Source: Escherichia coli (GTDB lineage: Bacteria > Pseudomonadota > Gammaproteobacteria > Enterobacterales > Enterobacteriaceae). Taken from it: 64,000 nucleotides of DNA. The stretch lies in NCBI RefSeq assembly GCF_041886205.1, contig NZ_CP169029.1. The stretch is one strand, 5' to 3'. The translations under genes were made by a program, and so were the position numbers. Shown piece by piece: positions 3,691-63,217 of the stretch (its first letter is position 1; the number at the start of each line of letters is the position of its first letter). The notes below the pieces were generated by a model, which had not been told where the DNA came from, made no database searches, and was given only the letters and a program-made list of their open reading frames with translations.

Positions 3691-3698
3691 ACTACGTT

Positions 3699-5313: not shown

Positions 5314-5390
5314 CGACACTGCTTCTGAATGATAATTGCGCATATTTCTGCAATTAAGATAATTACGTATTTCTGTAATTAAAAAGGAAC

Positions 5391-5435
5391 ACCCTGCAGT
5401 AATATTATACTGCAGGGTTGTCTGTTATCTGCTTT
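5391..5435 (+). terminator. Putative rho-independent terminator after the outer-membrane protein gene
   Basis: Perfect 11-bp inverted repeat accctgcagta/tactgcagggt followed by a T-rich tract. Confidence 0.4.
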
Positions 5436-5488
5436 ACAGGATATTTCTGATTTTTATTATCTTATTCTCTTTATATTAAGATATTTCG

Positions 5489-6988
5489 ATGAGTATCATA
5501 AAACTATTTTTTCCGGACAATACATCCCGAATTTTATTGTTTTTATTCTTTTTTGTTGTTTCTGTCATAACCACAATTGCATGCGGATACACTGAGAAGA
5601 ATACCACCGGGAATGTGTTGCTGCTGTTCTTTCTTCTGCTTCTTGCACACAGAAATACCCTCACATCCATTACAGCGCTGTTATTTCTGTTCTGTTGTGC
5701 ACTGTATGCGCCTGCCGGTATGACGTACGGTAAAATCAACAACAGTTTTATTGTCGCGTTGTTGCAGACCACGGCTGATGAGGCAGCGGAGTTTACCGGG
5801 ATGATTCCTGTTTATCATTTTCTGGTCAGTGCCGCGATTCTGGTATTCATGGTGATTTTCTGGCGAACACACCACCGCGGTCACCGTAACTGGCTGGCAC
5901 TGCTGCTATTCGTATTATGCTCTGTAAACAGCTGGCCGTTGCGGATGGTTAAAGGAACCGTTGTGGGGACAACTGACACATTGCGTGAAATGCAGCGTTA
6001 TAAACAACTGAGTCAGCACGGGGCTGACAGCTGGAAAATCCTGCCGGGTGTACCGTTGTATGACACGATTGTTATTGTTACTGGTGAGAGTGTGCGCAGG
6101 GATTATATGTCGGTATATGGCTATCCCGTGCCAACCACACCGTGGCTGAATACTGCTCCCGGTTTATTTATTGACGGCTATACATCGGCAGCAGCCAGTA
6201 CCGTACCTTCCCTGAGCCGGACACTGATTTATGACTATGAGCAGAACCCTGATTCCGGCAACAACGTGGTGGCGCTGGCAGCAAAATCAGGATACAGCAC
6301 ATGGTGGATATCCAATCAGGGAAAACTGGGAGAGCATGACACACGCATCTCTGTTATTGCTTCTGATGCGGAGCATACCGTTTTCCTCAAGAAAGGCAGC
6401 TTCGCTTCCCGTAAAACGGATGATATGTTGTTGTTACAGGAAACAGAACGTGCGCTGGCGGATACATCCTCTCCGAAGGTGATTTTCCTGCACATGATTG
6501 GCTCTCATCCGAATCCGTGTGACCGACTTAACTCCTGGCCGAATCATTACCTGGAGCAGTATCCCCGAAAGATTGCCTGTTACCTCGCCAGCATCAGTAA
6601 ACTGGATAACTTTCTCGGTCAGCTTGATGGTATCCTTCGCCGGCATTCCCGTCATTTCGCCATGCTTTACTTTTCTGACCATGGACTGTCGGTCAGCGAC
6701 AGCGCTAATCCTGTTCATCATGATGGTCATGTGCAGGGAGGCTACAGCGTTCCCCTGATTATTACCGCCAGTGACATCACGTCTCATCAGTCCGTCAGCA
6801 GAAAAATCAGTGCCCGTCATTTCGCAGGTATTTTTCAGTGGCTGACCGGCATTCGTACTGAAAATATACCGCCATTCAATCCGCTGACAGACGAAGATAA
6901 TGAACCCGTTATGGTTTTTAACGGGGAGAGGAATGTACCGGCAGACAGTCTGAAACCGCAGCCTCTGATTCTTCCGGACAGAAGATAA
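5489..6988 (+). CDS. Sulfatase-family phosphoethanolamine transferase-like inner-membrane protein (EptA/YhbX-like), 499 aa
   Basis: N-terminal multi-span hydrophobic region followed by a soluble domain with sulfatase-like signatures (IVTGESVRRDY, HMIGSHPNPCDRL). Exact start codon uncertain. Confidence 0.65.
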   Translation: MSIIKLFFPDNTSRILLFLFFFVVSVITTIACGYTEKNTTGNVLLLFFLLLLAHRNTLTSITALLFLFCCALYAPAGMTYGKINNSFIVALLQTTADEAAEFTGMIPVYHFLVSAAILVFMVIFWRTHHRGHRNWLALLLFVLCSVNSWPLRMVKGTVVGTTDTLREMQRYKQLSQHGADSWKILPGVPLYDTIVIVTGESVRRDYMSVYGYPVPTTPWLNTAPGLFIDGYTSAAASTVPSLSRTLIYDYEQNPDSGNNVVALAAKSGYSTWWISNQGKLGEHDTRISVIASDAEHTVFLKKGSFASRKTDDMLLLQETERALADTSSPKVIFLHMIGSHPNPCDRLNSWPNHYLEQYPRKIACYLASISKLDNFLGQLDGILRRHSRHFAMLYFSDHGLSVSDSANPVHHDGHVQGGYSVPLIITASDITSHQSVSRKISARHFAGIFQWLTGIRTENIPPFNPLTDEDNEPVMVFNGERNVPADSLKPQPLILPDRR

Positions 6989-7096
6989 TCATGTCGGTAT
7001 GAATGTTATAATTAAGGACCGTGCAATAATAGCCATTCCATTCAGCCATCTTACGCTCGAAAACAATCGATAAGATGGCTACTCACCATTCCTGCT

Positions 7097-10000: not shown

Positions 10001-10612
10001 GTGCTCAGCGAGTTCATATTGCTCAGGATTTTTAATCCAGTCGCCGGCAACGTTCTTCAGCAGCCTCTCTGAATCATCCAGATATTGACGCCACTCCTGC
10101 TGCAAGGCTGCATATCGTGCTTCCCGTTCTTCATCCGTTTCGGCAGTCTTATCAATGCCGTCATCAAAGTTGATAGAGAACGAGGTATGGATTGTCTTGT
10201 ATTTGTCATACTGCCCAATCTCACCAATCGAAAATGCTCCTTTTGGCAAAGGTTCAAGCAGGTCTCTGGGAATGGAGGTCGCTGGCGTCGGATATAAAAA
10301 ACCCTCACGGCTTAGCAAGGCTGGCGTCACTATCGGGGTAACAATATCAGGCGCGCCTGCGGAACGGTCCTTACCATGCTGCAGTAACCGGAAATAAACT
10401 TTTGGGCGCAAGATGACATCGACCGTTTCGACATCGTCTTTTTCTCCCTTAAAAAATTTACTGACAATCGCTTCGTCAAGACGTCCCGCCGCTATCCCAT
10501 GCCAGTGAGTGAAATTTTTGGCGTCTTTCCGTTCAAAACTGCCCTTTCCTGACTCAGCATCCGCAAGCGAGTTGCGCCAGTATGAGGTAAACCCTAAAGC
10601 ATTTTCATCCAT
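7097..10612 (-). CDS. SF1 helicase (Upf1/DNA2-like) fused to a C-terminal PLD-family (HKD) nuclease domain, 1171 aa; candidate single-gene antiphage defense protein
   Basis: Walker [15 protein letters not shown]; Walker B/motif [11 protein letters not shown]; [11 protein letters not shown]; C-terminal helicase motifs [14 protein letters not shown] and [16 protein letters not shown]; C-terminal [19 protein letters not shown] is an exact HxK(x)4D(x)6GSxN phospholipase-D motif. ATG at 10612..10610 with AGGA upstream. Confidence 0.75.
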
Positions 10613-10665
10613 TACCAGTCCTGTGACTCAATGAAATCCATTGATTTATCGAATATAAAACCACC

Positions 10666-10688
10666 ATATGGACAACTATTGTCCATAT
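10666..10688. promoter_or_regulatory. Perfect 10-bp inverted repeat (atatggacaa-cta-ttgtccatat) 54-76 bp upstream of the helicase-PLD start; candidate operator
   Basis: Palindrome read directly from the sequence, located in the upstream region of the minus-strand gene starting at 10612. Confidence 0.3.
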
Positions 10689-11009
10689 TGAAAAAATTGG
10701 ATGCAATGTTTTGTTTATAATTCGATATCAAATGTACTGGTTGTACAAGGTTCAGAACACAAGCACATTCAACAGTACGTCAGGACTATTGATTTCATAA
10801 CAGTGAATACATTTTTTACCGTTTATAATGACTGCCTGTGTTGGACAAGGATACCAGAACAGCCGAAAACACCGGGGGTTATTACCTGCTCTCATGGAAA
10901 CCAGATATTCCTGGTGCTAATCACAGTCATAAATAGCCTGAAGAACATGACGAAGGGACTTTAATGGACGCCGGAGTAACTTGCCAGAACATCAATCTTC
11001 GTCATCATT

Positions 11010-11060
11010 TACAAAGAAAAATAATCAGTTAAAGCAGTCCGGGCTGATTGCCCGGACTGC
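11010..11060 (-). terminator. Putative rho-independent terminator downstream of the integrase
   Basis: Perfect inverted repeat gcagtccggg/cccggactgc immediately after the integrase stop, followed on the minus strand by a T-rich tract. Confidence 0.45.
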
Positions 11061-11063
11061 TTA

Positions 11064-12326
11064 CTATTTTAATGGATTGTTAATTTTTGCATATTCAAAC
11101 GGACTGATACCCTTCTCCCGGTTCGCATCCAGAAAATCGGCCCACCATTGCAACATCAGTCGCCGTTCTTCCAGATGTTCTGCTTTATGGATATACGCAG
11201 CACGTACACCATTACGCTCCTGATGGCTCATCTGACGTTCCACAGCATCGCGGGACCACAAACCTGATTCAATCAATGCACTGCACGCCATCGCCCGGAA
11301 TCCATGGCCACAGACATCCTGGGTTGTGTCATACCCCATCACCCTCAGGGCTTTATTTACAGTATTTTCACTGATTGGTTTACGCGGGTCATGTGCTCCC
11401 GTAAAGATCAGACCATTTTCACCAGCCCATGTCTGTAGTTCTGCCAGTATGGCTACAGCCTGTTTGCTGAGTGGCACAAGATGTGGTGTTCGCATCTTGG
11501 AGCCCCGGTGTGAGAATTTTACGCCAGGCAGAGGTTCGCGTTCGGCTGGAATAGTCCACATGGCATTGTCAATATCAATTTCAGACCAGCGGGCGTATCT
11601 GAGTTCACTGGAACGAATAAAAACCAGTAAATTCAGCATAACTGCCAGTCGGGTGACAGGCTGGCCTTTATAACCGTCAATACGCGACAGAAGTTCAGGC
11701 AGGCGTGAAAGATCCAGTGCAGGGCGATGCTGGCGTTTTACCGTGGTCAATGCACCAGCCATATCCAGAGCCGGGTTATATCTGATGATGCCAGACTGTA
11801 CGGCATAACGCATTACAGCAGATATTCTTTGCTGCAGACGACTGGCGATTTCATAAATTTGTTTAGCTTCTGCAGCACGAACAGGGATAAGCAGGTCCGG
11901 GGTACTGAGTGTTGTGATATCCCGGTTGCCGATAAAGGGGAAAACGTGTGTCTCGAGGCTTTTGAGTACTTTATCGCTGTGTGATTGTGCCCATTGTTTA
12001 TTACTGGCATGCCAGCGTCGTGCAATATGTTCAAAAGAGAGTTGTAAATCAGGGACTACTTTTTTAGCTCTTTTCAGTTCGCAAGGGTCAATCCCCTCCG
12101 AAATCAGTTTTCGGGCCTCATCCCGTTTTGTACGAGCTTCGGAGAGAGAAACTTCTGGATACACACCAAGTGCCAGAGTCTTCTCCTTACCCAGAATACG
12201 ATAACGGAGACGCCAGTAACGGGAACCATTAGGATGAACCAGTAGGAACATGCCAGCCCCGTCAGTGAGTTTATAAGCCTTGTCAGTGGGCTTTGCAGCC
12301 CGGATTTTTGCGTCAGTCAGTGCCAT
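11064..12326 (-). CDS. P4-type phage integrase (tyrosine recombinase), island integrase next to tRNA-Phe
   Basis: Translation from the internal Met: MALTDAKIRAAKPTDKAYKLTDGAGMFLLVHPNGSRYWRLRYR... (typical P4-family N-terminus); C-terminal catalytic region with HGFRAMA...YIHKAEHLEERR. The ORF-track start at 12389 is an upstream extension. Confidence 0.85.
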   Translation of the reverse strand: MALTDAKIRAAKPTDKAYKLTDGAGMFLLVHPNGSRYWRLRYRILGKEKTLALGVYPEVSLSEARTKRDEARKLISEGIDPCELKRAKKVVPDLQLSFEHIARRWHASNKQWAQSHSDKVLKSLETHVFPFIGNRDITTLSTPDLLIPVRAAEAKQIYEIASRLQQRISAVMRYAVQSGIIRYNPALDMAGALTTVKRQHRPALDLSRLPELLSRIDGYKGQPVTRLAVMLNLLVFIRSSELRYARWSEIDIDNAMWTIPAEREPLPGVKFSHRGSKMRTPHLVPLSKQAVAILAELQTWAGENGLIFTGAHDPRKPISENTVNKALRVMGYDTTQDVCGHGFRAMACSALIESGLWSRDAVERQMSHQERNGVRAAYIHKAEHLEERRLMLQWWADFLDANREKGISPFEYAKINNPLK

Positions 12327-12486
12327 AGTATAGCCTTCTGAATGCGTTAAAGAGGGTACAAATTCTGTCGAACTGGGGTATGCCCGCAATTATACCCACA
12401 CAATGGGGTTGATGTGGGGGGAATCTGGTTGAGTTCGGTAGAATTGATTTGTAGGTAGAACGCTTAAATTGTGGCGTTCTGAAACG

Positions 12487-12513
12487 AAAAACGGACCTCC
12501 GTGGAGGTCCGTT
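12487..12513 (-). terminator. Rho-independent terminator of tRNA-Phe
   Basis: Hairpin acggacctcc/ggaggtccgt directly 3' of the tRNA on the minus strand, followed by a TTTTTCGTTT run. Confidence 0.5.
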
Positions 12514-12523
12514 GATATGAATT

Positions 12524-12599
12524 TGGTGCCCGGACTCGGAATCGAACCAAGGACACGGGGATTTTCAATCCCCTGCTCTACCGACTGAGCTATCCGGGC
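12524..12599 (-). tRNA. pheV: tRNA-Phe (pheV locus by synteny with yqgA-speC)
   Basis: Reverse complement reads GCCCGGATAGCTCAGTCGGTAGAGCAGGGGATTGAAAATCCCCGTGTCCTTGGTTCGATTCCGAGTCCGGGCACCA, the E. coli tRNA-Phe sequence including CCA. Confidence 0.95.
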
Positions 12600-12704
12600 A
12601 ACGGGGCGCATTAAACCTGATTCGCCTCGTCTCGTCAATCAAATTTCTTCAATTTACTGCAGACTGCACAATCTATCATCACTTTGCCGCTATTGCACGC
12701 ATTG

Positions 12705-33366: not shown

Positions 33367-34761
33367 TTAATCGTGAGCGCCTATTTCGCGCAGTTTACGA
33401 CCTTTCATCAGATTACGTTCAATATGTTCCAGCGAAACGTGTTTGGTTTCCGGTACCAGCCACAATGTCAGCAGGATAAACAGTACGTTCAGAGCCGCAT
33501 ACACCCAGAAGGTGTTGGCGTTACCCAGCGTGTTGAGCATGGTCAGGAACGTTGCGCCAACGATCATGTTGGCAATCCAGTTGGTGGCAGTGGAGCAGGT
33601 GATGCCAAAATCGCGGCCTTTCAGCGGCTGAATTTCGGAGCACAGTACCCAAATCAGCGGACCGGCACTCATGGCAAAACCGACAATAAACATCAGCAGC
33701 ATGGCGATGGCGAAATACTGCGCCGACGGAGAGTGAATACCGATATGCATCATTGTACCGAGTACGCCCATGCCAGCAGCCATCACCAGGAAGCCCAGCG
33801 TTAGCGTTGGTTTACGTCCCCAGCGGTCAACAAGGCCGATTGCGATAAAGGTGGCAAGTACGTTGGTCAGGCCGACAATCACGGTCCCCCACATTTGCTC
33901 GGTAGTGTTGGTATAACCCGCCAGTTCGAAGATTTTCGGCGCGTAATACATGATGACGTTCATCCCGGTGAATTGCTGCATTACCTGCAACAGTACGCCA
34001 AGGAACACCGCGCGGCGGAAGTTGCTGTTCTCTTTAAACAGCGCCCAGCCACTCTGTTTAACCTGCAAACTTTCACGGATTTCATCCAGTTCGCGTTTCG
34101 CTTCCGCGCTGGTGTCACGCAGGCGTAGCAGCACGCGTTCGGCATCAACAAAACGGCGTTTGGCGGCAAACCAACGTGGGCTGTCTGGCAGGAAGAAGAC
34201 ACCAATCAGCAGCAAAATTGCCGGGATGATAATCACACCCAGCATCCAGCGCCATGCACCGGTGTAGCTGAAGGCTGTATCAGAAAGATAAGCACCGAGG
34301 ATCCCGATAGTGATCATCAACTGATACATCGAGATCATACTGCCACGAATTTTTTCCGGCGCAATTTCAGAGAGGTACAGCGGTGCGGTATAAGAGGCCA
34401 CACCCACCGCCAGCCCCAGTAGAACGCGGGAAAGAATCAGTACTTCAACGTTTGGCGCAGCCGCAGAGAACAGCGAACCGGCAACAAACAAAATTGCGCC
34501 GATCATCAGGCTCTTTTTGCGCCCGAGTTTAAAGGAGAGCCAGCCGCTGCCCACCGCACCGACTGCCGCACCGAACATCATGGAGCTTACGACCCATTCT
34601 TGCGTGTGCGAAGTAATCTGGAATTCATCTGCAATAAACGGCAGTGCGCCAGCAATTACACCGATATCCAGGCCAAAGAGTAATCCCGCCAGAGCGGCAA
34701 GGAAGCAGACGAAAAACGTCATTGCCTTGTTTGACCGCCCCTGTTTTTTAGCGTCAGGCAT
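33367..34761 (-). CDS. galP: Galactose:H+ symporter GalP
   Basis: [42 protein letters not shown]..., 464 aa, MFS sugar porter. Confidence 0.95.
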
Positions 34762-35142
34762 GATGCCCTCCAATATGGTTATTTTTTATTGTGAATTAAG
34801 ATAGGTGAGTACGACGTAAAAAGATGTGAAGCAAATCACATCAGTGTAATCGCTTACACTAACATTTATCTTAGTTATGGTTTAAGTGCATGAAAATAAT
34901 TGAGTTATATCATCATAGATTAAACGCTGTTATCTGCAATTAAGACTTTACTGAAAAGAAATGTAACAACTGTGAAAACTGAATAATAATATGAAAATAT
35001 TACAAATATTTGGCTGGTGTTATTGGTGTAATCGGTTTCAGTAGTGATGATAATTTGCGATAAAACGTGTTGAGGAAGAATGATGTTATTGTGCGGGCAG
35101 CTTTTTGCCGGATGCGGCGTGAATGCCTATCCACCGCGGTGA

Positions 35143-42233: not shown

Positions 42234-44225
42234 ATGTCCTCACGTAAAGAGCTTGCCAATGCTATTCGTGCGCTGAGCATGGACGCAGTACAGAAAGCCA
42301 AATCCGGTCACCCGGGTGCCCCTATGGGTATGGCTGACATTGCCGAAGTCCTGTGGCGTGATTTCCTGAAACACAACCCGCAGAATCCGTCCTGGGCTGA
42401 CCGTGACCGCTTCGTGCTGTCCAACGGCCACGGCTCCATGCTGATCTACAGCCTGCTGCACCTCACCGGTTATGATCTGCCGATGGAAGAACTGAAAAAC
42501 TTCCGTCAGCTGCACTCTAAAACTCCGGGCCACCCGGAAGTGGGTTACACCGCTGGTGTGGAAACCACCACCGGTCCGCTGGGTCAGGGTATTGCCAACG
42601 CAGTCGGTATGGCGATTGCAGAAAAAACGCTGGCGGCGCAGTTTAACCGTCCGGGCCACGACATTGTCGACCACTACACCTACGCCTTCATGGGCGACGG
42701 CTGCATGATGGAAGGCATCTCCCACGAAGTTTGCTCTCTGGCGGGTACGCTGAAGCTGGGTAAACTGATTGCATTCTACGATGACAACGGTATTTCTATC
42801 GATGGTCACGTTGAAGGCTGGTTCACCGACGACACCGCAATGCGTTTCGAAGCTTACGGCTGGCACGTTATTCGCGACATCGACGGTCATGACGCGGCAT
42901 CCATCAAACGCGCAGTTGAAGAAGCGCGCGCAGTGACTGACAAACCGTCCCTGCTGATGTGCAAAACCATCATCGGTTTCGGTTCCCCGAACAAAGCCGG
43001 TACCCACGACTCCCACGGTGCGCCGCTGGGCGACGCTGAAATTGCCCTGACCCGCGAACAGCTGGGCTGGAAATACGCGCCGTTCGAAATCCCGTCTGAA
43101 ATCTATGCTCAGTGGGATGCGAAAGAAGTAGGCCAGGCGAAAGAATCTGCATGGAATGAGAAGTTTGCGGCTTACGCGAAAGCTTATCCGCAGGAAGCGG
43201 CTGAATTTACCCGCCGTATGAAAGGCGAAATGCCGTCTGACTTCGACGCCAAAGCGAAAGAGTTTATCGCTAAACTGCAGGCTAATCCGGCGAAAATCGC
43301 CAGCCGTAAAGCGTCTCAGAATGCTATCGAAGCTTTCGGTCCGCTGTTGCCGGAATTCCTCGGCGGTTCTGCTGACCTGGCACCATCTAACCTGACCCTG
43401 TGGTCTGGTTCTAAAGCAATCAACGAAGATGCTGCGGGTAACTACATCCACTACGGTGTTCGCGAGTTCGGTATGACCGCGATTGCTAACGGTATCTCCC
43501 TGCACGGTGGTTTCCTGCCGTACACCTCCACCTTCCTGATGTTCGTGGAATACGCACGTAACGCCGTACGTATGGCTGCGCTGATGAAACAGCGTCAGGT
43601 GATGGTTTACACCCACGACTCCATCGGTCTGGGCGAAGATGGCCCGACTCACCAGCCGGTAGAGCAGGTCGCTTCTCTGCGCGTAACCCCGAACATGTCT
43701 ACATGGCGTCCGTGTGACCAGGTTGAATCCGCGGTCGCGTGGAAATACGGTGTTGAGCGTCAGGACGGCCCGACTGCGCTGATCCTCTCCCGTCAGAACC
43801 TGGCGCAGCAGGAACGAACTGAAGAGCAACTGGCAAACATCGCGCGCGGTGGTTATGTGCTGAAAGACTGCGCCGGTCAGCCGGAACTGATTTTCATCGC
43901 TACCGGTTCAGAAGTTGAATTGGCGGTTGCTGCCTACGAAAAACTGACTGCTGAAGGCGTGAAAGCGCGCGTGGTGTCCATGCCGTCTACCGACGCATTT
44001 GACAAGCAGGATGCTGCTTACCGTGAATCCGTACTGCCGAAAGCGGTTACTGCACGCGTTGCTGTAGAAGCGGGTATTGCTGACTACTGGTACAAGTATG
44101 TTGGCCTGAACGGTGCTATCGTCGGTATGACCACCTTCGGTGAATCTGCTCCGGCAGAGCTGCTGTTTGAAGAGTTCGGCTTCACTGTTGATAACGTTGT
44201 TGCGAAAGCAAAAGCGCTGCTGTAA
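42234..44225 (+). CDS. tktA: Transketolase 1
   Basis: [41 protein letters not shown]..., 663 aa. Confidence 0.96.
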
Positions 44226-44235
44226 TTAGCATTTC

Positions 44236-44266
44236 GGGTAAAAAGGTCGCTTCGGCGACCTTTTTT
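44236..44266 (+). terminator. Rho-independent terminator of tktA
   Basis: Hairpin aaaggtcgc/gcgaccttt followed by TTTTTT. Confidence 0.65.
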
Positions 44267-44533
44267 ATTGCCTTGATATGTCCGTTTGCGGACAGGCAAT
44301 AGGTAAATAGTGATGTGTATCGCAAATATTTATATGAAATAAATATTAACTATGTAATGCGTATCACAATATGCATATTGACATTTATTTTTATATCCAT
44401 AAATAACTGTTATTTATGGAATTAATAATTCATTGTTTTTAAAGCATCGATTTCCTCGCTGGATTGCTTTCATTAAACCGCACGAGTATTTTATTTTTAC
44501 CGCCGGACAGTACCCTAAAAATAAGGATAATTT

Positions 44534-44977
44534 ATGCGGCTTAGTGATTATTTTCCAGAATCATCAATCTCAGTTATATATTCAGCAAAAGATTGGCAGG
44601 AAGCTATCGATTTCTCGATGGTATCATTGCTGGATAAAAACTATATCAGCGAGAATTACATTCAGGCAATTAAAGATTCCACCATTAACAATGGCCCTTA
44701 TTATATTCTCGCACCAGGCGTGGCAATGCCTCATGCGCGACCGGAATGTGGGGCGCTTAAAACCGGGATGTCTTTGACATTACTTGAACAAGGTGTTTAT
44801 TTTCCGGGGAATGACGAACCAATTAAATTACTCATCGGACTCTCTGCTGCCGATGCCGATTCGCACATTGGCGCTATTCAGGCGTTAAGTGAATTACTGT
44901 GCGAAGAAGAAATACTCGAACAACTCTTAACAGCATCATCAGAAAAACAATTAGCGGACATTATCAGCCGCGGATAA
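44534..44977 (+). CDS. cmtB: Cryptic mannitol-type PTS enzyme IIA
   Basis: MRLSDYFPESSISVIYSAKDWQEAIDFSMVSLLDKNYISENY..., 147 aa. Confidence 0.92.
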   Translation: MRLSDYFPESSISVIYSAKDWQEAIDFSMVSLLDKNYISENYIQAIKDSTINNGPYYILAPGVAMPHARPECGALKTGMSLTLLEQGVYFPGNDEPIKLLIGLSAADADSHIGAIQALSELLCEEEILEQLLTASSEKQLADIISRG

Positions 44978-45004
44978 TTACTCTCTCCTCTACAGGATAA
45001 TATT

Positions 45005-46393
45005 ATGGAAAACAAGTCTGCTCGTGCAAAGGTCCAGGCTTTTGGGGGCTTTTTGACTGCAATGGTCATCCCCAATATTGGTGCTTTTATTGCCTGGGGT
45101 TTTATTACTGCGTTATTTATTCCCACCGGTTGGCTGCCTAACGAACATTTCGCCAAAATTGTCGGCCCGATGATTACCTATTTATTGCCCGTGATGATTG
45201 GTTCTACCGGTGGTCATCTGGTCGGCGGTAAACGCGGCGCGGTCATGGGCGGAATAGGTACTATTGGTGTGATCGTCGGCGCAGAGATCCCGATGTTCCT
45301 TGGCTCAATGATTATGGGGCCGCTCGGTGGGCTGGTCATAAAATATGTTGATAAGGCACTGGAAAAACGCATACCTGCCGGTTTTGAGATGGTTATCAAT
45401 AACTTCTCATTAGGTATCGCGGGGATGCTCCTTTGTCTGCTGGGTTTTGAAGTGATCGGCCCGGCGGTGTTAATTGCCAATACTTTCGTCAAAGAGTGTA
45501 TTGAGGCGCTGGTACATGCGGGTTATCTGCCTCTGCTGTCAGTCATCAATGAACCGGCGAAAGTGCTTTTCCTTAATAATGCGATCGATCAGGGCGTCTA
45601 TTATCCGCTGGGAATGCAACAGGCTTCGGTTAACGGCAAATCCATCTTCTTTATGGTGGCCTCTAACCCAGGTCCGGGCCTGGGGCTGCTGCTGGCGTTT
45701 ACCTTGTTTGGTAAAGGGATGAGTAAACGTTCTGCGCCAGGGGCGATGATTATTCACTTCCTCGGTAGGATCCACGAACTGTATTTCCCGTATGTGCTGA
45801 TGAAGCCGCTGACCATTATTGCCATGATTGCGGGCGGTATGTCTGGCACCTGGATGTTTAACTTACTGGACGGTGGTCTGGTGGCTGGCCCAAGTCCGGG
45901 GTCTATCTTTGCTTACCTGGCACTGACGCCGAAAGGTTCGTTCCTGGCGACAATTGCCGGTGTTACGGTAGGTACCCTGGTGTCCTTTGCTATCACTTCG
46001 CTGATACTGAAGATGGAAAAAACGGTGGAAACGGAGAGCGAAGATGAGTTTGCTCAGTCAGCCAATGCGGTTAAGGCGATGAAACAAGAGGGTGCATTCT
46101 CGTTAAGTCGGGTTAAGCGTATCGCCTTTGTTTGCGATGCGGGGATGGGCTCCAGTGCGATGGGCGCGACCACCTTCCGTAAACGCCTGGAAAAAGCGGG
46201 GCTGGCAATTGAAGTAAAACATTACGCCATAGAAAACGTGCCTGCGGATGCGGATATCGTCGTTACTCATGCCAGTCTGGAAGGGCGCGTGAAACGTGTG
46301 ACGGATAAACCACTGATATTGATTAGTAACTATATTGGCGATCCAAAACTCGACACTTTATTTAATCAATTAACCGCCGAACATAAACACTGA
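45005..46393 (+). CDS. cmtA: Cryptic mannitol-type PTS enzyme IICB
   Basis: MENKSARAKVQAFGGFLTAMVIPNIGAFIAWGFITALFIPTGW..., 462 aa, EIIC membrane domain plus C-terminal EIIB. Confidence 0.92.
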   Translation: MENKSARAKVQAFGGFLTAMVIPNIGAFIAWGFITALFIPTGWLPNEHFAKIVGPMITYLLPVMIGSTGGHLVGGKRGAVMGGIGTIGVIVGAEIPMFLGSMIMGPLGGLVIKYVDKALEKRIPAGFEMVINNFSLGIAGMLLCLLGFEVIGPAVLIANTFVKECIEALVHAGYLPLLSVINEPAKVLFLNNAIDQGVYYPLGMQQASVNGKSIFFMVASNPGPGLGLLLAFTLFGKGMSKRSAPGAMIIHFLGRIHELYFPYVLMKPLTIIAMIAGGMSGTWMFNLLDGGLVAGPSPGSIFAYLALTPKGSFLATIAGVTVGTLVSFAITSLILKMEKTVETESEDEFAQSANAVKAMKQEGAFSLSRVKRIAFVCDAGMGSSAMGATTFRKRLEKAGLAIEVKHYAIENVPADADIVVTHASLEGRVKRVTDKPLILISNYIGDPKLDTLFNQLTAEHKH

Positions 46394-46407
46394 TTACAGA
46401 GGTAAAA

Positions 46408-47685
46408 ATGAAAACCAAAGTTGCTGCTATTTATGGCAAGCGGGATGTCCGTCTGCGCGAATTTGAACTGCCAGAAATTACCGATAATGAACTTTTGGTG
46501 AGTGTAATTTCTGACAGTGTCTGTTTATCCACCTGGAAAGCGGCGTTACTCGGTAGTGAACATAAACGCGTACCCGACGATTTAGAAAATCATCCGGTCA
46601 TTACCGGGCATGAATGTGCCGGGGTTATTGTCGAAGTGGGTAAAAATCTCACTGGCAAATATAAAAAAGGCCAGCGTTTTGTATTGCAACCGGCGATGGG
46701 GTTACCAAGCGGATATTCAGCGGGCTACAGCTACGAATATTTTGGCGGTAACGCCACCTATATGATTATTCCCGAGATCGCCATTAATTTGGGCTGCGTA
46801 TTACCGTATCACGGCTCTTATTTTGCTGCGGCGTCGCTGGCAGAGCCTATGTGCTGCATTATTGGCGCTTATCATGCCAATTATCACACCACGCAATATG
46901 TTTATGAGCATCACATGGGCGTCAAACCTGGCGGCAATATTGCACTGCTGGCGTGTGCAGGTCCGATGGGCATTGGCGCTATCGATTACGCCATTAACGG
47001 CGGCATACAACCGTCGCGGGTGGTGGTGGTCGATATCGACGACAAACGTCTGGCGCAGGTACAGAAGCTGCTGCCGGTGGAACTGGCGGCCAGTAAAGGC
47101 ATTGAGCTGGTGTATGTGAATACCAAAGGGATGAGTGATCCTGTCCAGATGCTGCGGGCGCTGACAGGAGATGCCGGGTTCGATGACATTTTTGTTTATG
47201 CGGCGGTGCCTGCTGTCGTTGAGATGGCTGATGAATTACTGGCGGAAGATGGCTGTCTGAACTTCTTTGCCGGGCCGACGGATAAAAACTTCAAAGTGCC
47301 GTTTAATTTCTACAACGTCCATTACAACAGCACGCACGTAGTCGGTACATCCGGCGGTTCAACGGACGACATGAAAGAGGCGATTGCCCTTAGCGCCACA
47401 GGACAGTTACAGCCGTCGTTTATGGTGACCCATATTGGTGGCCTGGATGCGGTGCCAGAAACCGTGCTCAATCTGCCGGATATCCCTGGCGGTAAAAAAC
47501 TCATTTATAACGGCGTGACCATGCCGCTCACTGCCATTGCCGATTTTGCCGAAAAAGGCAAAACCGATCCGCTGTTTAAAGAGCTGGCGCGGCTGGTTGA
47601 GGAAACGCACGGCATCTGGAATGAACAGGCCGAGAAATATCTGCTGGCACAATTTGGCGTTGATATTGGGGAGGCCGCGCAATGA
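46408..47685 (+). CDS. yggP: Zinc-type alcohol dehydrogenase-like protein YggP
   Basis: MKTKVAAIYGKRDVRLREFELPEITDNELLV..., 425 aa. Confidence 0.88.
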   Translation: MKTKVAAIYGKRDVRLREFELPEITDNELLVSVISDSVCLSTWKAALLGSEHKRVPDDLENHPVITGHECAGVIVEVGKNLTGKYKKGQRFVLQPAMGLPSGYSAGYSYEYFGGNATYMIIPEIAINLGCVLPYHGSYFAAASLAEPMCCIIGAYHANYHTTQYVYEHHMGVKPGGNIALLACAGPMGIGAIDYAINGGIQPSRVVVVDIDDKRLAQVQKLLPVELAASKGIELVYVNTKGMSDPVQMLRALTGDAGFDDIFVYAAVPAVVEMADELLAEDGCLNFFAGPTDKNFKVPFNFYNVHYNSTHVVGTSGGSTDDMKEAIALSATGQLQPSFMVTHIGGLDAVPETVLNLPDIPGGKKLIYNGVTMPLTAIADFAEKGKTDPLFKELARLVEETHGIWNEQAEKYLLAQFGVDIGEAAQ

Positions 47686-48647
47686 TGTCCCTGGCGTGGC
47701 CATTATTTCGCGTTACGGAACAGGCAGCGTTGGCTGCCTGGCCGCAAACCGGATGTGGCGACAAAAATAAAATTGATGGCCTGGCGGTCACCGCGATGCG
47801 ACAGGCATTAAACGACGTCGCTTTTCGTGGACGAGTGGTTATCGGCGAAGGAGAAATTGACCATGCGCCGATGCTGTGGATTGGCGAAGAGGTGGGCAAA
47901 GGCGATGGGCCAGAAGTCGATATCGCGGTTGACCCGATTGAAGGCACGCGGATGGTAGCGATGGGGCAGAGCAATGCGCTGGCGGTCATGGCTTTCGCCC
48001 CTCGAGATAGCCTGTTACATGCGCCCGATATGTATATGAAAAAGCTGGTTGTTAATCGACTGGCGGCGGGCGCGATTGATCTGTCTTTGCCTCTGGCGGA
48101 CAACTTGCGCAACGTGGCGCGGGCGTTAGGCAAACCGCTGGACAAGCTGCGCATGGTTACGCTGGATAAACCGCGCCTGAGTGCCGCGATTGAAGAAGCA
48201 ACACAGCTGGGCGTGAAGGTTTTCGCTCTGCCGGATGGCGATGTCGCCGCCAGCGTGCTGACCTGCTGGCAGGATAATCCTTACGATGTGATGTACACCA
48301 TCGGCGGTGCGCCAGAAGGCGTGATTTCTGCCTGTGCCGTTAAAGCATTAGGCGGGGATATGCAGGCCGAGCTGATTGACTTTTGCCAGGCTAAAGGGGA
48401 TTACACGGAAAATCGGCAGATTGCAGAGCAGGAGCGCAAGCGTTGCAAGGCAATGGGCGTTGACGTTAACCGTGTGTACTCGCTCGATGAACTGGTGAGG
48501 GGGAACGATATCCTCTTTAGCGCTACGGGCGTGACGGGCGGTGAGCTGGTGAACGGTATCCAACAGACGGCGAATGGGGTGCGGACGCAGACATTACTGA
48601 TCGGCGGCGCGGACCAAACGTGTAATATAATAGACTCCCTGCATTGA
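47682..48647 (+). CDS. yggF: Fructose-1,6-bisphosphatase class II (GlpX-like) YggF
   Basis: MMSLAWPLFRVTEQAALAAWPQTGCGDKNKIDGLAVTAMRQALN..., 321 aa; 4-nt overlap with yggP. Confidence 0.9.
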   Translation: MMSLAWPLFRVTEQAALAAWPQTGCGDKNKIDGLAVTAMRQALNDVAFRGRVVIGEGEIDHAPMLWIGEEVGKGDGPEVDIAVDPIEGTRMVAMGQSNALAVMAFAPRDSLLHAPDMYMKKLVVNRLAAGAIDLSLPLADNLRNVARALGKPLDKLRMVTLDKPRLSAAIEEATQLGVKVFALPDGDVAASVLTCWQDNPYDVMYTIGGAPEGVISACAVKALGGDMQAELIDFCQAKGDYTENRQIAEQERKRCKAMGVDVNRVYSLDELVRGNDILFSATGVTGGELVNGIQQTANGVRTQTLLIGGADQTCNIIDSLH

Positions 48648-48668
48648 TGGTGATCTATCGGAAGACCA

Positions 48669-49178
48669 ATGGCGACGCTGACAGAAGATGATGTGCTTGA
48701 GCAACTGGATGCACAGGACAATTTATTTTCATTTATGAAAACTGCGCATTCTATTTTGCTCCAGGGGATACGCCAGTTTCTGCCGTCGCTGTTTGTCGAT
48801 AACGATGAAGAGATCGTCGAATATGCAGTGAAGCCGTTACTCGCCCAAAGCGGCCCGCTTGACGATATTGATGTTGCACTGCGTTTGATTTATGCGCTGG
48901 GGAAAATGGATAAATGGCTGTACGCCGATATCACGCATTTTTCCCAGTTCTGGCATTACCTGAACGAACAGGATGAAGCGCCCGGATTTGCCGATGACAT
49001 GACCTGGGATTTTATCAGCAACGTCAATAGCATAACCTGCAATGCGACGCTCTATGACGCGTTGAAAGCGATGAAATTCGCCGATTTCGCCGTCTGGTCA
49101 GAGGCGCGTTTTAGCGGGATGGTCAAAACGGCGCTGACGCTGGCAGTAACGACCACCTTAAAGGAATTAACGCCGTGA
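48669..49178 (+). CDS. yggD: MtlR-like protein YggD (reported as fumarase E)
   Basis: MATLTEDDVLEQLDAQDNLFSFMKTAHSILLQGIRQ..., 169 aa. Confidence 0.85.
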   Translation: MATLTEDDVLEQLDAQDNLFSFMKTAHSILLQGIRQFLPSLFVDNDEEIVEYAVKPLLAQSGPLDDIDVALRLIYALGKMDKWLYADITHFSQFWHYLNEQDEAPGFADDMTWDFISNVNSITCNATLYDALKAMKFADFAVWSEARFSGMVKTALTLAVTTTLKELTP

Positions 49179-49888
49179 AAATTGAATTAACGGTGAATGG
49201 GCTGAAGATACAGGCACAGTACCAGAACGAAGAGATAGAAAATGTACATAAACCGTTGCTGCGCATGTTGGCGGCCTTACAGACGGTAAATCCGCAGCGG
49301 CGTACGGTGGTTTTTCTTTGCGCTCCGCCGGGGACGGGTAAATCAACCCTAACCACCTTCTGGGAATATCTCGCGCAACAAGACCCGGAGCTGCCCGCTA
49401 TACAGACGCTGCCGATGGATGGTTTTCACCATTACAATAGCTGGCTGGATGCGCATCAATTGCGCCCCTTCAAAGGCGCTCCAGAGACATTTGACGTTGC
49501 GAAACTGGCGGAAAATCTGCGCCAGGTCGTGGAAGGGGATTGTACGTGGCCGCAGTACGATCGACAAAAGCATGATCCTGTTGAAGATGCGTTGCACGTT
49601 ACCGCACCACTCGTCATCGTCGAAGGAAACTGGCTATTACTGGATGATGAAAAGTGGCAGGAGTTGGCATCTTTCTGCGATTTTTCTATTTTTATTCATG
49701 CACCTGCTCAAATTCTGCGGGAGCGCTTGATTAGTCGTAAAATTGCGGGAGGATTATCGCGGCAAGCAGCCGAAGCATTTTATGCCCGAACCGATGGCCC
49801 CAATGTCGAGCGTGTGCTGATGAATAGCCGTCAGGCCAATCTGATAGTAGAGATGACTGAAGAAGGCCGGTATCACTTCACAAGCTGA
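49175..49888 (+). CDS. yggC: P-loop nucleoside kinase-like protein YggC
   Basis: Walker A CAPPGTGKST; 237 aa; 4-nt overlap with yggD. Confidence 0.88.
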   Translation: MKIELTVNGLKIQAQYQNEEIENVHKPLLRMLAALQTVNPQRRTVVFLCAPPGTGKSTLTTFWEYLAQQDPELPAIQTLPMDGFHHYNSWLDAHQLRPFKGAPETFDVAKLAENLRQVVEGDCTWPQYDRQKHDPVEDALHVTAPLVIVEGNWLLLDDEKWQELASFCDFSIFIHAPAQILRERLISRKIAGGLSRQAAEAFYARTDGPNVERVLMNSRQANLIVEMTEEGRYHFTS

Positions 49889-50172
49889 CAATTTATTCCA
49901 GTTATTGCAGGGTTATTATTACGCCAGCCTGGAATAAAGCTTCCCACAAAAGGGGATAAAAGTGTGATGTGAGTCAGATAAATGTCTTCTTCGGCTGGAC
50001 AAACATTCCTTTTATTCCACGTTTCGCTTATCCTAGCTGAAGCGTTTCAGTCGATTAAATGTTCGACAATTAACCAATCAGTCGCAGTTTGCGACAGGTA
50101 AGGTTTCCCCGGACGATTTGCTGGATTACTCTGTCTGGCAAATTTGCTCAGGGAAAACCTTGCAGGAGATCT

Positions 50173-51192
50173 ATGACCGTACGCGTAGCGATAAATGGCT
50201 TCGGTCGCATCGGGCGTAATGTGGTTCGTGCTTTGTATGAATCCGGACGCCGGGCGGAAATTACCGTGGTGGCAATCAACGAACTGGCGGATGCTGCGGG
50301 CATGGCGCATTTGTTGAAATATGACACCAGCCATGGCCGTTTTGCATGGGAAGTACGACAGGAACGCGATCAACTTTTTGTTGGTGATGACGCCATCCGC
50401 GTATTGCATGAACGTTCACTGCAATCGCTCCCCTGGCGTGAACTTGGCGTTGATGTAGTCCTCGACTGCACCGGCGTATATGGCTCCCGCGAGCATGGCG
50501 AAGCGCATATTGCCGCCGGGGCCAAAAAAGTGCTCTTTTCACATCCTGGCAGTAACGATCTCGACGCGACCGTTGTTTACGGCGTCAATCAGGATCAACT
50601 TCGTGCGGAACACCGCATCGTTTCTAACGCTTCCTGTACCACGAATTGCATAATTCCCGTCATCAAATTGTTAGATGATGCGTACGGTATTGAGTCCGGC
50701 ACTGTGACCACAATTCACTCCGCCATGCACGATCAACAGGTTATTGATGCATACCATCCTGACCTGCGTCGCACCCGGGCAGCCAGCCAGTCGATCATTC
50801 CGGTCGATACTAAACTGGCCGCCGGTATCACACGATTTTTTCCGCAATTTAACGATCGCTTTGAAGCGATTGCGGTACGTGTGCCAACCATAAATGTGAC
50901 GGCAATCGATTTAAGCGTGACGGTGAAGAAACCTGTAAAAGCCAATGAAGTCAACCTGTTGCTGCAAAAAGCAGCACAAGGTGCATTTCATGGTATAGTT
51001 GACTATACGGAATTGCCGTTGGTCTCTGTAGATTTTAACCACGATCCGCACAGTGCCATTGTCGATGGCACCCAAACCCGGGTCAGTGGCGCACACCTGA
51101 TCAAAACGTTGGTCTGGTGCGATAACGAATGGGGCTTTGCTAACCGAATGCTCGACACGACGTTAGCTATGGCTACTGTTGCTTTCAGGTAA
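50173..51192 (+). CDS. epd: D-erythrose-4-phosphate dehydrogenase
   Basis: [37 protein letters not shown]..., 339 aa. Confidence 0.95.
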
Positions 51193-59881: not shown

Positions 59882-60877
59882 TTAATCAAAATATTGCGTC
59901 TGGATAAATTCACTGAGCTGCCGCAGGCCGGTGCGCGGTGAGAGCGTATTGTTTTTGACCGCTAAAAGCGTCTGGCGGTAATAGCGATCGAAATCTTCAT
60001 TCGCGAACAGGTGATTCAGTACTTCTTCTTCGGTCTGCTTACGCAGCCATTCCACCGATTGTTGTTGCCGCACTTGTTGTAAACGACCACTGGCAGTTAG
60101 CGCGGTTTTGAAGTCGATGATGGCGTGCCAGATCTCATCGATTCCACGTTTTTCCAGTGCGCTACAAGTCAGAACCCGTGGCTGCCATTCGTCGTATTTA
60201 CGTCGCAGAATATGCAGGGCACTCTCGTACATATGCCGGGCAATGGCGACATTGGTATGGTTATCGCCATCGTCTTTGTTGATAACGAGCAGATCAGCCA
60301 CTTCCATCAGCCCTTTTTTAATGCCCTGCAGATCATCGCCGCCACCGGCAATTTGCAACGAGATAAAACAGTCCACCATGCGGGCGACTTCCGTTTCCGA
60401 CTGCCCGACGCCAACCGTTTCGACAATCACTACGTCATAACCCGCCGCTTCGCATAACAGCATTAATTCCCGCGCTCGCTGACTGGCACCGCCCAGATGA
60501 CCGGAGGATGGTACCGGGCGAATAAACGCCGCTTCGGCACGCGCCAGGTCATTCATGCGGGTTTTATCCCCGAGAATGCTACCGCCAGTGACCGGGCTGC
60601 TGGGATCGACCGCAATAACCGCGACCTTTAATCCCTCACGAATCAACAACATGCCAAAGGCTTCAAGAAAGGTACTTTTCCCCGCGCCGGGTGTGCCGGT
60701 AACGCCCAGTCGCAGGGCGTTACCGCAGTACGGCATAATGGCATCAAGCAGTTGCGTACTTAGCGCCTGATGACGCGGGTGACGGCTTTCCACCAGCGTC
60801 ATGGCCTGGGCGAGTGTGGCACGCTCACCCTGACGTAAGCGGCGAATACTTTCTGCCAGCGTGGCTTCATTAATCAT
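59882..60877 (-). CDS. argK: Methylmalonyl-CoA mutase-associated GTPase (MeaB/ArgK)
   Basis: P-loop [13 protein letters not shown]; [31 protein letters not shown]..., 331 aa. Confidence 0.93.
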
Positions 60878-63014
60878 GATGCTGGCTTATCAGATTCAGT
60901 ACGTCGCGCACACTGTCGAGCATAGGTGTACCTGGACCATAAATCGCCGCCACGCCGCGCTCTTGCAGGAAGGCGTAATCCTGCGGTGGAATGACGCCAC
61001 CGGCGACTACGCAGATATCTTCGCGTCCCCATTTTTTCAGCGCTTCGACCAGTTCCGGGATCAGCGTTTTATGACCGGCAGCCAGTGAGGATGCGCCCAC
61101 TACGTGAACGTCGTTTTCTACGGCCAGGCGGGCGATCTCTTCAGGTGTAGAGAACATCGGGCTTAAATCTACGTCGAAACCGAGATCGGAATAGGCGCTG
61201 GCGATCACTTTTGCGCCGCGATCGTGCCCATCCTGGCCCATTTTAGCGATCAGAATGCGCGGGCGACGACCATTGTCGGCAAGGAACTGCTCCGTTTGCG
61301 CAACAATGGCATCGAACTCGGAGGCCGATTTCTCAGATTGATGATAGCTTTGCGCAATCACGCCGGTAACACACTGGCTTGGCACCAGATAACGGTCGAA
61401 AGCGGCTTCCAGCGCATCGGAAATTTCACCCAGGGTGGCGCGAACGCGAGCGGCATTAACAGCGGCAGCCAGCAGGTTTTCGTTATGCTGTGCGGCGTGA
61501 GTCAGGGCGTTCAACGCGGCGGTTACGGCGGCATCATCACGGGTGGCGCGAATGCGTTCCAGCGAAGCAATTTGCTCGTTACGCACCATCACGTTGTCGA
61601 TCTCAAGTACATCGGTTTCGTCTTCGTGATCCAGTTTGTACTTGTTGACACCAACGATGACACGTTTGCCCTGGTCGATAAGCGACTGTTCGCGCGCTGA
61701 GGCCTCTTCGATCATTCGTTTTGGCAGACCTGCTTCGATCGCTTTCGCCATGCCACCGGCTTCGTCGATCTGTTGGATAATGGCTCTGGCTTGTTTGACG
61801 ATTTGATCGGTCAGCGACTCAACGTAATAGGATCCGGCCAGCGGATCGACGGTGCGGCAGAGTTCTGATTCTTCCTGGATGATGATCTGGGTGTTGCGGG
61901 CAATGCGTGCGGAGAAATCGGTAGGCAAACCAAGCGCTTCGTCAAAGGCGTTGGTATGCAGTGACTGAGTACCGCCCAGCGTCGCAGCCAGTGCTTCAAT
62001 GGTGGTGCGGATAACGTTGTTATACGGATCCTGTTCAGTCAGGCTCCAGCCTGAGGTCTGGCAGTGGGTACGCAGCGCCAGTGATTTCGGGTCCTGTGCG
62101 CCAAATCCACTGACCGCTTCGCTCCATAAATAACGTGCCGCACGCAACATGGCGACGTTCATAAACAGATCCATGCCGATGCCGAAGAAGAACGACAGGC
62201 GAGGAGCGAAGTCATCAATTTTCAGCCCGGCGGAGATTGCTGCTTTGATGTACTCAATCCCATCGGCGAGCGTAAATGCTACCTGCTGCACGCAGTTGGC
62301 ACCCGCTTCACCCATGTGGTAACCGCTGATACTGATGGTATTAAATCGCGGCATGTTGCCAGAACACCAGGCGATGATGTCGGCGATAATGCGCATTGAC
62401 GGTTTTGGCGGGTAAATATAGGTGTTGCGGCAAAGATACTCTTTGAGGATATCGTTTTGAATGGTGCCGGTCAGTTTATCAGGTGTAACACCTTGCTCTT
62501 CTGCGGCGACGATATAAAACGCCAGTACTGGTAGCACTGCGCCATTCATGGTCATCGAAACCGACATTTTTTCCAGCGGGATCTGGTCGAACAGGACTTT
62601 CATATCTTCCACGGTGTCGATAGCGACGCCCGCTTTGCCGACGTCGCCCGCCACGCGCGGGTTATCGGAGTCGTAGCCTCGGTGGGTGGCAAGGTCAAAC
62701 GCAACGGAAAGACCTTTTTGCCCGGCGGCCAGGTTACGGCGATAAAAAGCGTTGGACTCTTTTGCTGTTGAAAAACCAGCATACTGACGGATGGTCCACG
62801 GTTGGGCGGTATACATAGTGGCACGCGGGCCACGAACGTAGGGCGGCAAACCAGGAAGGGTACCTGTCACCTCCAGATTATCGAGATCGGCTTCGGTATA
62901 CAGCGGCTTGATGGCGATCCCTTCCGCGGTTTGCTGAACCAGCGAGTCGACAGTTTTCTCCCGACGGCTCAATTCCTTGTTGGCAAGCTGTTGCCACTCC
63001 TGCACGTTAGACAT
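60870..63014 (-). CDS. scpA: Methylmalonyl-CoA mutase (Sbm/ScpA)
   Basis: [48 protein letters not shown]..., 714 aa; C-terminal B12-binding region. Confidence 0.95.
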
Positions 63015-63217
63015 TATTTGCTCCGTAAAACGCAATCAAAATGAGGGTATTTGCGCCTACGGTGAGCTTTTTACGTGGGTTTGTCGCCAGCAAAAAAAAT
63101 GCATTCAGACGTCGTTTTTTGCCGCCTGAGATTTGTCTATTTTGTGATGTGATTCAAGGAATACAAAAAGAAGTGAGGGAAATGCCTGATATGTGCTATC
63201 AGGCATTATTTGATGGA

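Follow-up and report, generated by a model that had tools for sequence, protein, structure and literature searches.

Intact cmtBA-yggPFDC operon in an Escherichia coli genome and the rare, diverged allele of its upstream control region

The 64,000-nucleotide stretch of Escherichia coli DNA analysed here (contig NZ_CP169029.1 of assembly GCF_041886205.1, referred to as the window) contains the already known K-12 operon cmtBA-yggPFDC, which hardly any E. coli genome lacks. The locus most probably keeps the intact, ancestral enterobacterial layout of this operon, with an AT-rich spacer in front of cmtB that acts as a conserved regulatory region and whose core is represented here by a rare diverged allele. 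The original prediction had described six intact and tightly packed genes, preceded by AT-rich DNA after the tktA terminator, and had called the whole the K-12 arrangement of a cryptic operon. The term was found right for the genes, of which the order, lengths and spacers are those of K-12, and wrong for the control region, because the upstream core (44267-44463) is a rare diverged allele with 81.7% identity to K-12.

The six genes and their upstream region

The genes cmtB (44534-44977, 147 aa), cmtA (45005-46393, 462 aa), yggP (46408-47685, 425 aa), yggF (47682-48647, 321 aa), yggD (annotated fumE; 48669-49178, 169 aa) and yggC (49175-49888, 237 aa, GTG start) follow each other in this order on the plus strand, between tktA and epd. 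The upstream neighbour tktA (transketolase 1; 42234-44225, plus strand) has 663 codons and 98.5% nucleotide identity to K-12 with 2 amino-acid changes, and is the gene annotated as tkt in strain 6EVA. All six open reading frames (ORFs) are open and have the length, start codon and stop codon of their K-12 MG1655 counterparts; the alignment with K-12 revealed no internal stop, no frameshift and no coding insertion, in agreement with the intactness claimed earlier. The six genes are 97.5-99.8% identical to those of K-12 MG1655 at the nucleotide level, with 1-5 amino-acid changes per protein, and cmtB differs at a single nucleotide.

The packing was also as described before. The intergenic spacers from cmtB to yggC measure 27, 14, -4, 21 and -4 nt, the same as in K-12 and none above 27 nt, and the two 4-nt overlaps were located as ATGA at 47682-47685 (yggP/yggF) and GTGA at 49175-49178 (yggD/yggC). 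A Shine-Dalgarno-like motif lies 5' of each of the six genes. The GC content of the operon is 50.6%, and its region contains 6 terminator-like pattern matches where 7.1 were expected from shuffles. When a 7-kb query around the operon was compared with complete E. coli genomes, a match was obtained in 5,425 of 5,426, at least 80% of the region was kept in 5,388 of the 5,426, and the annotation order of the matched locus was tkt, cmtB, cmtA, yggP, glpX (yggF), fumE, yggC and epd. The intactness of the operon is informative, because about 10% of the E. coli genomes (~559 of 5,413 complete genomes, CFT073 included) have a ~650-bp deletion inside yggF, which is then annotated as a pseudogene; in the compared CFT073 stretch the shortened gene lies at 9225-9540.

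The AT-rich spacer between tktA and cmtB (44226-44533) is 308 bp long with a GC content of 32% (the K-12 version has 313 bp), where the window averages 50.3% (with an sd of 5.1% among windows of 308 bp), and only 0.9% of the 308-bp windows in the 64 kb are equally AT-rich. The roughly 300 bp of AT-rich sequence reported after the tktA terminator was thus recovered together with the terminator itself (44240-44271, plus strand), which is intrinsic and has an 11-bp stem, AAAAAGGTCGC-TTCG-GCGACCTTTTT (44240-44265), followed by a T run. The stem forms a perfect inverted repeat (44240-44250 / 44255-44265) that is identical in K-12, the fold of 44220-44310 reaches -31.4 kcal/mol (z = -4.3), and the A run and T run on its two sides give the terminator a bidirectional shape. 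The pattern scanner did not report this terminator, probably because the T run was absorbed into the stem. A second hairpin, TATTGCCT...AGGCAATA around TGTCCG-TTTG-CGGACA, follows at 44266-44301 on the plus strand.

A hairpin homologous to the tktA terminator was found in Salmonella, Citrobacter and Klebsiella. A YggP-based scan, with one genome per species, returned outgroup loci from many genera, and in seven genera other than Escherichia tktA is followed by a spacer of 300-345 bp with 31-36% GC in which the homologous terminator hairpin comes first. The genomes with such spacers belong to Superficieibacter, Citrobacter (two), Klebsiella spallanzanii, Salmonella enterica subsp. diarizonae, Lelliottia, Enterobacter and Buttiauxella. 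As judged from these sequences, the AT-rich spacer is not foreign DNA, and its AT-richness is a conserved trait of the control region. An Rfam scan of the spacer and operon by E-value returned only a chance match to rsmX (E 0.73; 21.8 bits, where the gathering score is 56). Elsewhere in the core-genome part of the window, the only comparably AT-rich stretch is 34698-35125 (minimum 29% GC), which is the metK-galP spacer by 6EVA coordinates; galP is also among the CRP targets listed in a chromatin immunoprecipitation sequencing (ChIP-seq) study (PMC4287617).

The hypervariable regulatory core (44267-44463) has 36 substitutions in 197 bp relative to K-12 (18.3%; 24 transitions and 12 transversions) and no indels. 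Beside it, the differences from K-12 amount to 0 of 41 positions in the terminator part, 1 of 70 in the promoter and leader (44464-44533), 1 of 444 in cmtB and 1 of 284 in the yggC-epd spacer, and in the eight genes compared, 3.3% of the 4-fold degenerate sites differ. The only indel between the window locus and K-12 is a 5-bp deletion (44514-44524, plus strand) just 5' of the Shine-Dalgarno sequence, which leaves one AAAAT copy where K-12 has two; the same short form is present in E. albertii, Raoultella and Lelliottia.

The core allele of the window is rare. Among the 5,426 complete E. coli genomes it was found at 99% identity or above in 8 and at 95-99% in 1, a core of 80-90% identity (the K-12 type) was present in 3,579, and the core was undetectable in 1,836. 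The 1,836 genomes without a detectable core have a 909-bp gene of the SPFH/Band 7 (prohibitin) family between tktA and cmtB, encoded on the opposite strand; the count of genomes with this gene is ~1,825-1,860. These SPFH-bearing genomes have cores of their own, 468 of them sharing 95% identity or more with CFT073 and 1,357 only 60-80%. At least four discrete classes of core allele occur in E. coli; the classes are 50-82% identical to one another, and the genes on either side are 95-99% identical. The alleles can still be aligned and have islands in common, namely two CRP-like sites, TTGAC and TTGTTAT. A 43-bp near-palindrome (44387-44429) with perfect 12-bp arms at 44396-44407 and 44409-44420 is specific to the window allele; its K-12 counterpart is a 9-nt repeat, 89% complementary, with 15 nt between the arms, and the central 25 bp hold 7 of the 36 core differences.

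Candidate promoter and probable CRP control of the operon

The core promoter of cmtB is predicted on the plus strand at 44464-44492, with TTGCTT (44464-44469) as the -35 element, a 17-bp spacer and TATTTT (44487-44492) as the -10 element. When the 100 bases before cmtB were aligned for 21 sequences ranging from Escherichia to Providencia, the blocks TTG.TT and TAT.TT, 17 bp apart, were invariant or nearly so, and the homology among all E. coli alleles resumes at 44463, just before the -35. We infer that this pair is the cmtB promoter, and transcription would start near 44499. A TTGACA block at 44378-44383 (plus strand) may be a second -35 or a binding site; TTGAC is found in every Escherichia allele compared, where other genera have TTGCT or TTGAA, and inspection by eye gave no convincing -10 partner for this block. 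Promoter-like pattern matches overall were not above the count in shuffles, and a scanner match at 44504-44531 (CGGACA-16-GATAAT) was dropped as it overlaps the Shine-Dalgarno sequence and the start codon.

The leader contains an inverted repeat at 44491-44524 (TTATTTTTA / TAAAAATAA, 16-nt spacer) that overlaps the -10 element and ends at the Shine-Dalgarno sequence. The sequence of this repeat, TATTTTATTTTTA / TAAAAATAAAATA, is conserved across genera, and its arms are 13 nt long in K-12 and 9 nt long in the window because of the 5-bp AAAAT deletion. It may serve as a DNA operator. As an RNA structure, the long AU hairpin of TATTTTATTTTTA and TAAAAATAAAATA was rejected, RNAalifold having returned no consensus pairs on the 21 sequences. 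A conserved hairpin of the 5' untranslated region, TACCG-ccgga-CGGTA, likewise obtained no RNAalifold pairs, and the small stem is broken in the window and in CFT073. Single-sequence folds of the leader are no better than those of shuffles (z +0.13 to -1.65).

Two CRP-like sites lie upstream of the predicted promoter. Site 1 (44309-44324, AGTGATGTGTATCGCA) matches the consensus TGTGA-N6-TCACA at 8 of 10 positions and site 2 (44353-44368, TGTAATGCGTATCACA) at 9 of 10; two sites with at least 8 of 10 matches occur in ~1% of the spacer shuffles (P about 0.01), and both blocks are recognisable in all the genera and all the E. coli alleles compared. Site 1 is homologous to CGTGTTGTAGATCACA of K-12, and the reverse complement of the K-12 sequence is the site TGTGATCTACAACACG given for enterotoxigenic E. 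coli (ETEC) in the ChIP-seq study (PMC4287617). In ETEC H10407, a CRP ChIP-seq peak lies upstream of cmtB with a fold above threshold of 16, and it ranks with the strongest chromosomal CRP peaks in the examined part of the table (PMC4287617). The K-12 cmtB promoter was also reported among those activated by CRP, through genomic SELEX (systematic evolution of ligands by exponential enrichment) and through a lacZ fusion, the activity of which was lost in a crp mutant (PMC3105977). These findings together suggest that the two upstream sites put the promoter under the control of cAMP-CRP, by their motif in the window and by experiments made on a K-12-like allele.

Protein functions, conservation and the proposed pathway

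The proteins were assigned by family models and by the residues they retain. CmtB, an enzyme IIA (EIIA) of the mannitol family of the phosphotransferase system (PTS), matched PF00359 at 102 bits and the NF007358 equivalog at 323.5 bits (cutoff 192), and its His67 aligns with the phospho-His554 of MtlA. CmtA, the corresponding EIICB, matched PF02378 and PF02302 as well as TIGR00851 at 476.9 bits (cutoff 468.4); it is 54.7% identical to MtlA, and its Cys377 aligns with the phospho-Cys384 of that protein. The pair thus holds the EIIC and EIIB domains, the phospho-Cys and the phospho-His by which an Enzyme II of the mannitol PTS family (TC 4.A.2) is recognised.

YggP is a zinc-type medium-chain dehydrogenase, similar to polyol or ketose reductases, with PF08240, PF00107 and a GHE zinc motif. 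It is without a close solved relative, the nearest being a ketose reductase and sorbitol dehydrogenase at E about 1e-8, and some sources call it L-sorbose 1-phosphate reductase. On comparison YggP was found unrelated to MtlD, and the locus is therefore not a simple copy of mtlADR. The yggP gene also contains an intragenic sigma-54 binding motif at 46928-46944 on the plus strand (CTGGCGGCAATATTGCA), an exact match to the site IS35 reported inside yggP in K-12 (PMC4591121). YggF is a class II (GlpX-type) fructose-1,6-bisphosphatase, which matched PF03320 at 404.6 bits over residues 3-321 and TIGR00330 at 586 bits (cutoff 259). Deletion of yggF was reported to result in poorer fermentative growth on glycerol (PMC8719807), and its mRNA was 30.8-fold higher in an algal co-culture than in lysogeny broth (PMC10972114); the genes are thus expressed and have a role in certain conditions.

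YggD belongs to the MtlR family, with a full-length MtlR domain (PF05068, 177.5 bits against 25.2) and the equivalog NF007455. It is the protein of PDB entry 3c8g (E 4e-108) and is related to MtlR of 6kcr at E 7e-13. Its matches in Pfam and NCBIfam were models of the MtlR domain or of MtlR-type regulators only, with no fumarase family among them. The annotation of YggD as fumarase E reportedly comes from a single metabolomics screen, and the fumE label appears doubtful because this is an MtlR-fold protein without similarity to a fumarase family. DNA binding by YggD was not seen in ChIP-exo (PMC8464067). YggC is a P-loop kinase of the PRK09270 / pantothenate-uridine kinase group with the Walker A sequence APPGTGKS; it matched NF006742 at 507 bits (cutoff 402), and its nearest solved relative is 3c8u, deposited as Fructokinase (E 4e-22).

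All six genes show strong purifying selection, with ratios of nonsynonymous to synonymous substitution (dN/dS) of 0.03-0.14 in comparison with Salmonella, Citrobacter and Klebsiella, the value for tktA being 0.04. A cluster of CmtB, CmtA, YggP, YggD and YggC, without YggF, is present in Vibrio, Aliivibrio, Photobacterium, Rahnella and Budvicia, some of the Vibrio clusters also adjoin tktA, and a cluster of CmtB, YggC, CmtA and YggP occurs in Lachnospiraceae. From this selection and the conserved core, it follows that "cryptic" here does not mean decaying and that the operon is a maintained, functional module.

In metagenome-assembled genomes (MAGs) of Clostridia, Lentisphaerae and Spirochaetes, homologues of YggP with 55-59% identity were found without PTS genes in the 6 kb examined on either side. 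Recurrent neighbours of these homologues are the parts of a 2-oxoacid-dehydrogenase-like complex, namely a fused E1 (with E1_dh and transketolase domains), E2 and E3, and a class II aldolase fused to a short-chain dehydrogenase/reductase (SDR) also recurs together with a DeoR regulator. This context points to a thiamine pyrophosphate (TPP)-dependent cleavage of the YggP product and recalls the linkage to tktA in Enterobacteria and Vibrio.

On the basis of these features, the following scheme is proposed. The six genes would form one transcription unit read from a weak sigma-70 promoter (44464-44469 / 44487-44492), which cAMP-CRP would drive through the sites at 44309-44324 and 44353-44368. CmtB (EIIA) and CmtA (EIICB), with the activity suggested by their residues, would import and phosphorylate a mannitol-like polyol or a ketose, and YggP would interconvert polyol-phosphate and ketose-phosphate. 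The YggC kinase and the YggF bisphosphatase may tune the phosphorylation state, and the product would enter glycolysis or the pentose-phosphate pathway, for which genes lie adjacent (tktA, epd, pgk and fbaA). YggD, having the MtlR fold and no DNA-binding domain, is more plausibly a regulator acting through protein-protein contacts than a fumarase.

Several points weigh against this account of a conserved, CRP-controlled module. No obvious linear pathway results when a kinase and a bisphosphatase share an operon, and yggF, missing from the Vibrio and Rahnella clusters and deleted in ~10% of E. coli, may be accessory. The promoter is inferred from the features above, and so are the transcription of the six genes as one unit and the sequence of steps in the whole pathway. 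The CRP-like sites lie ~138 and 182 bp upstream of a start that is itself predicted, far from the usual positions of -41.5 and -61.5 to -92.5, and therefore a second promoter near TTGACA at 44378 or an indirect activation is possible. The occupancy and activity data for CRP come from the K-12-like allele, and site 1 of the window differs at 6 of 16 positions. Binding of H-NS to the spacer is also compatible with the data.

Alternative explanations, neighbouring DNA and related systems

The AT-rich spacer could be a scar left by the deletion of the SPFH/Band 7 gene, which occupies this place in about a third of E. coli (CFT073 included, at 4792-5700 of the compared stretch), in E. albertii and in cryptic-clade Escherichia, and the homology of the window to the SPFH alleles does break exactly at the tktA stop codon and return at 44463. 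The SPFH gene, however, stands in place of the tktA terminator and was found in Escherichia only, whereas the seven other genera compared lack it, and their spacers equal that of the window in length and composition and carry the homologous terminator, and no SPFH coding remnant was detected in the spacer of the window (tblastn best E = 6). The simplest reading of the outgroup spacers and the missing remnant is that the SPFH gene was inserted and replaced the terminator, with the window keeping the older form; a deletion scar is thus very unlikely, and a later precise loss of the gene in some E. coli lineages retains a small probability. To our knowledge, no growth substrate is known for the cmt-ygg operon, and this was also counted in favour of the idea that the operon is a decaying duplicate of mtl on its way to pseudogenes, the intactness seen here being incidental. 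The yggF deletion in ~10% of the complete genomes and the lack of DNA binding by YggD (PMC8464067) would fit the same idea. It was considered very unlikely in view of the low dN/dS of all six genes across genera, the catalytic residues that were kept, the core cluster conserved from Enterobacterales to Vibrionaceae and Lachnospiraceae and the retention of most of the 7-kb region in 5,388 of the 5,426 genomes.

A different explanation of the cryptic state, that H-NS or another nucleoid protein on the AT-rich spacer silences the promoter, agrees with the GC content of 28-32% over 200-300 bp, which is an outlier in the window, and with two 8/10 matches to the H-NS nucleation motif TCGATAAATT (44396-44405 and 44411-44420) inside the near-palindrome; H-NS has also been recorded at the neighbouring yggC-epd spacer (PMC3946193). 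Matches of 8/10 are common in the window, though, with 86 found against 67 expected, and both the spacer and the operon are ancestral traits of Enterobacteriaceae, neither horizontally acquired nor lineage-specific. A literature search turned up no H-NS occupancy data for the tktA-cmtB spacer, the supplements of the ETEC study consisting of CRP tables only (PMC4287617). By contrast, the homologous site is strongly occupied by CRP in vivo in ETEC, with the fold above threshold of 16 noted above, and according to the same study H-NS excludes CRP at other loci (PMC4287617). The activity of the K-12 promoter-lacZ fusion, present and crp-dependent (PMC3105977), argues in the same direction. Strong CRP binding in living cells argues for an accessible region, at any rate when the allele is K-12-like and the cells grow in fructose minimal medium. 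The evidence therefore leans away from silencing, to which only a minor probability was given; ordinary catabolite control together with some inducer is the likelier explanation.

The core may also be an old multi-allelic polymorphism, in which alleles would have been kept, or exchanged again and again, because they set different expression of a conserved PTS-dehydrogenase-kinase pathway (CmtAB-YggP-YggC) acting on a substrate other than mannitol. This was based on at least four haplotype classes with 18-50% divergence, compared with 1-5% for the genes of the locus, and it was held with low confidence; the palindrome of the window would then be a binding site missing in K-12, a corollary that we regard as equally tentative. 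Switched intergenic regions are said to have been described in bacterial core genomes by Oren et al. in PNAS in 2014 and by Thorpe et al. (Piggy). The cmt locus resembles them in having discrete control versions, 50-82% identical, between core genes that are 95-99% identical. It differs from them in that its core alleles can be aligned and have islands in common, the insertion of the SPFH gene being the only true replacement. Deep divergence, or partial replacement that occurred repeatedly, thus appears a better description of the core variation than a swap for unrelated DNA.

Outside the spacer, the other end of the operon is also variable. In CFT073 and strain 190693, a transporter cluster of the ATP-binding cassette (ABC) / energy-coupling factor (ECF) type has been inserted after yggC, overlapping the 3' end of yggC by ~29 bp (10753-12377 in CFT073 and 11403-12377 in strain 190693, in coordinates of the compared stretches), where the yggC-epd spacer of the window (49889-50172) and of K-12 has just 284 bp. 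With inserts beside tktA and after yggC, both ends of the operon appear as insertion hot spots. The epd gene (50173-51192) matches K-12 without any difference (100% identity) and cmtB has a single changed nucleotide, while tktA, cmtA, yggP, yggF, yggD and yggC differ by 1.4-2.6%; such a pattern suggests a mosaic formed by recombination, with breakpoints close to either end of the operon.

The start of the window (1-12600) lies inside a genomic island beside a tRNA-Phe gene (12524-12599, minus strand). In the best-matching record this island contains an integrase, two large AAA-domain proteins, a phosphoethanolamine transferase and transposase remnants. It differs from strain 6EVA, which is otherwise the closest and matches the window at 99.87% over 11011-64000. 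The island is 99.9% identical to that of strain ZYB39, except that ZYB39 has ~2 kb more and a gene for an outer-membrane protein is interrupted there by IS100 (istA/istB). An internal stop annotated in scpA of 6EVA is absent from the window, in which the ORF is open over 60870-63035.

Taken as a whole, the locus is like that of K-12 MG1655 (b2934, b2933, b4465, b2930, b2929 and b2928) in its six genes and their order, strand, lengths and spacers, in the identical tktA terminator and in a nearly identical core promoter. It is unlike K-12 in its upstream core, 18% diverged, in having one AAAAT fewer and the 43-bp near-palindrome, and in CRP-like site 1, where the half-site matches are distributed differently. 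Compared with E. coli mtlADR, which encodes MtlA (EIICBA), MtlD and MtlR, CmtA is equivalent to the IIC-IIB part and CmtB to the IIA domain of MtlA, and YggD belongs to the MtlR family with 29.7% identity. In the ETEC data, the cmt and mtl promoters are alike in being strong targets of CRP by ChIP-seq, each with several CRP sites (PMC4287617). The cmt system differs from mtlADR by its separate EIIA, by YggP, which is of the zinc medium-chain and not of the MtlD type, and by the addition of a kinase and a GlpX-type bisphosphatase.

The finding as originally stated is of low importance, being a textbook K-12 locus, and the multi-allelic core is a modest curiosity. The control region is nevertheless among the most variable stretches of a conserved neighbourhood, and it may offer a test case for the divergence of regulatory alleles within a species. 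The core of CmtA, CmtB, YggP and YggC and its neighbours in other phyla are concrete candidates for biochemical assignment. The label "cryptic" masks a strongly conserved module under purifying selection and, as the CRP-like sites and the experiments on the K-12-like allele suggest, under the control of CRP.

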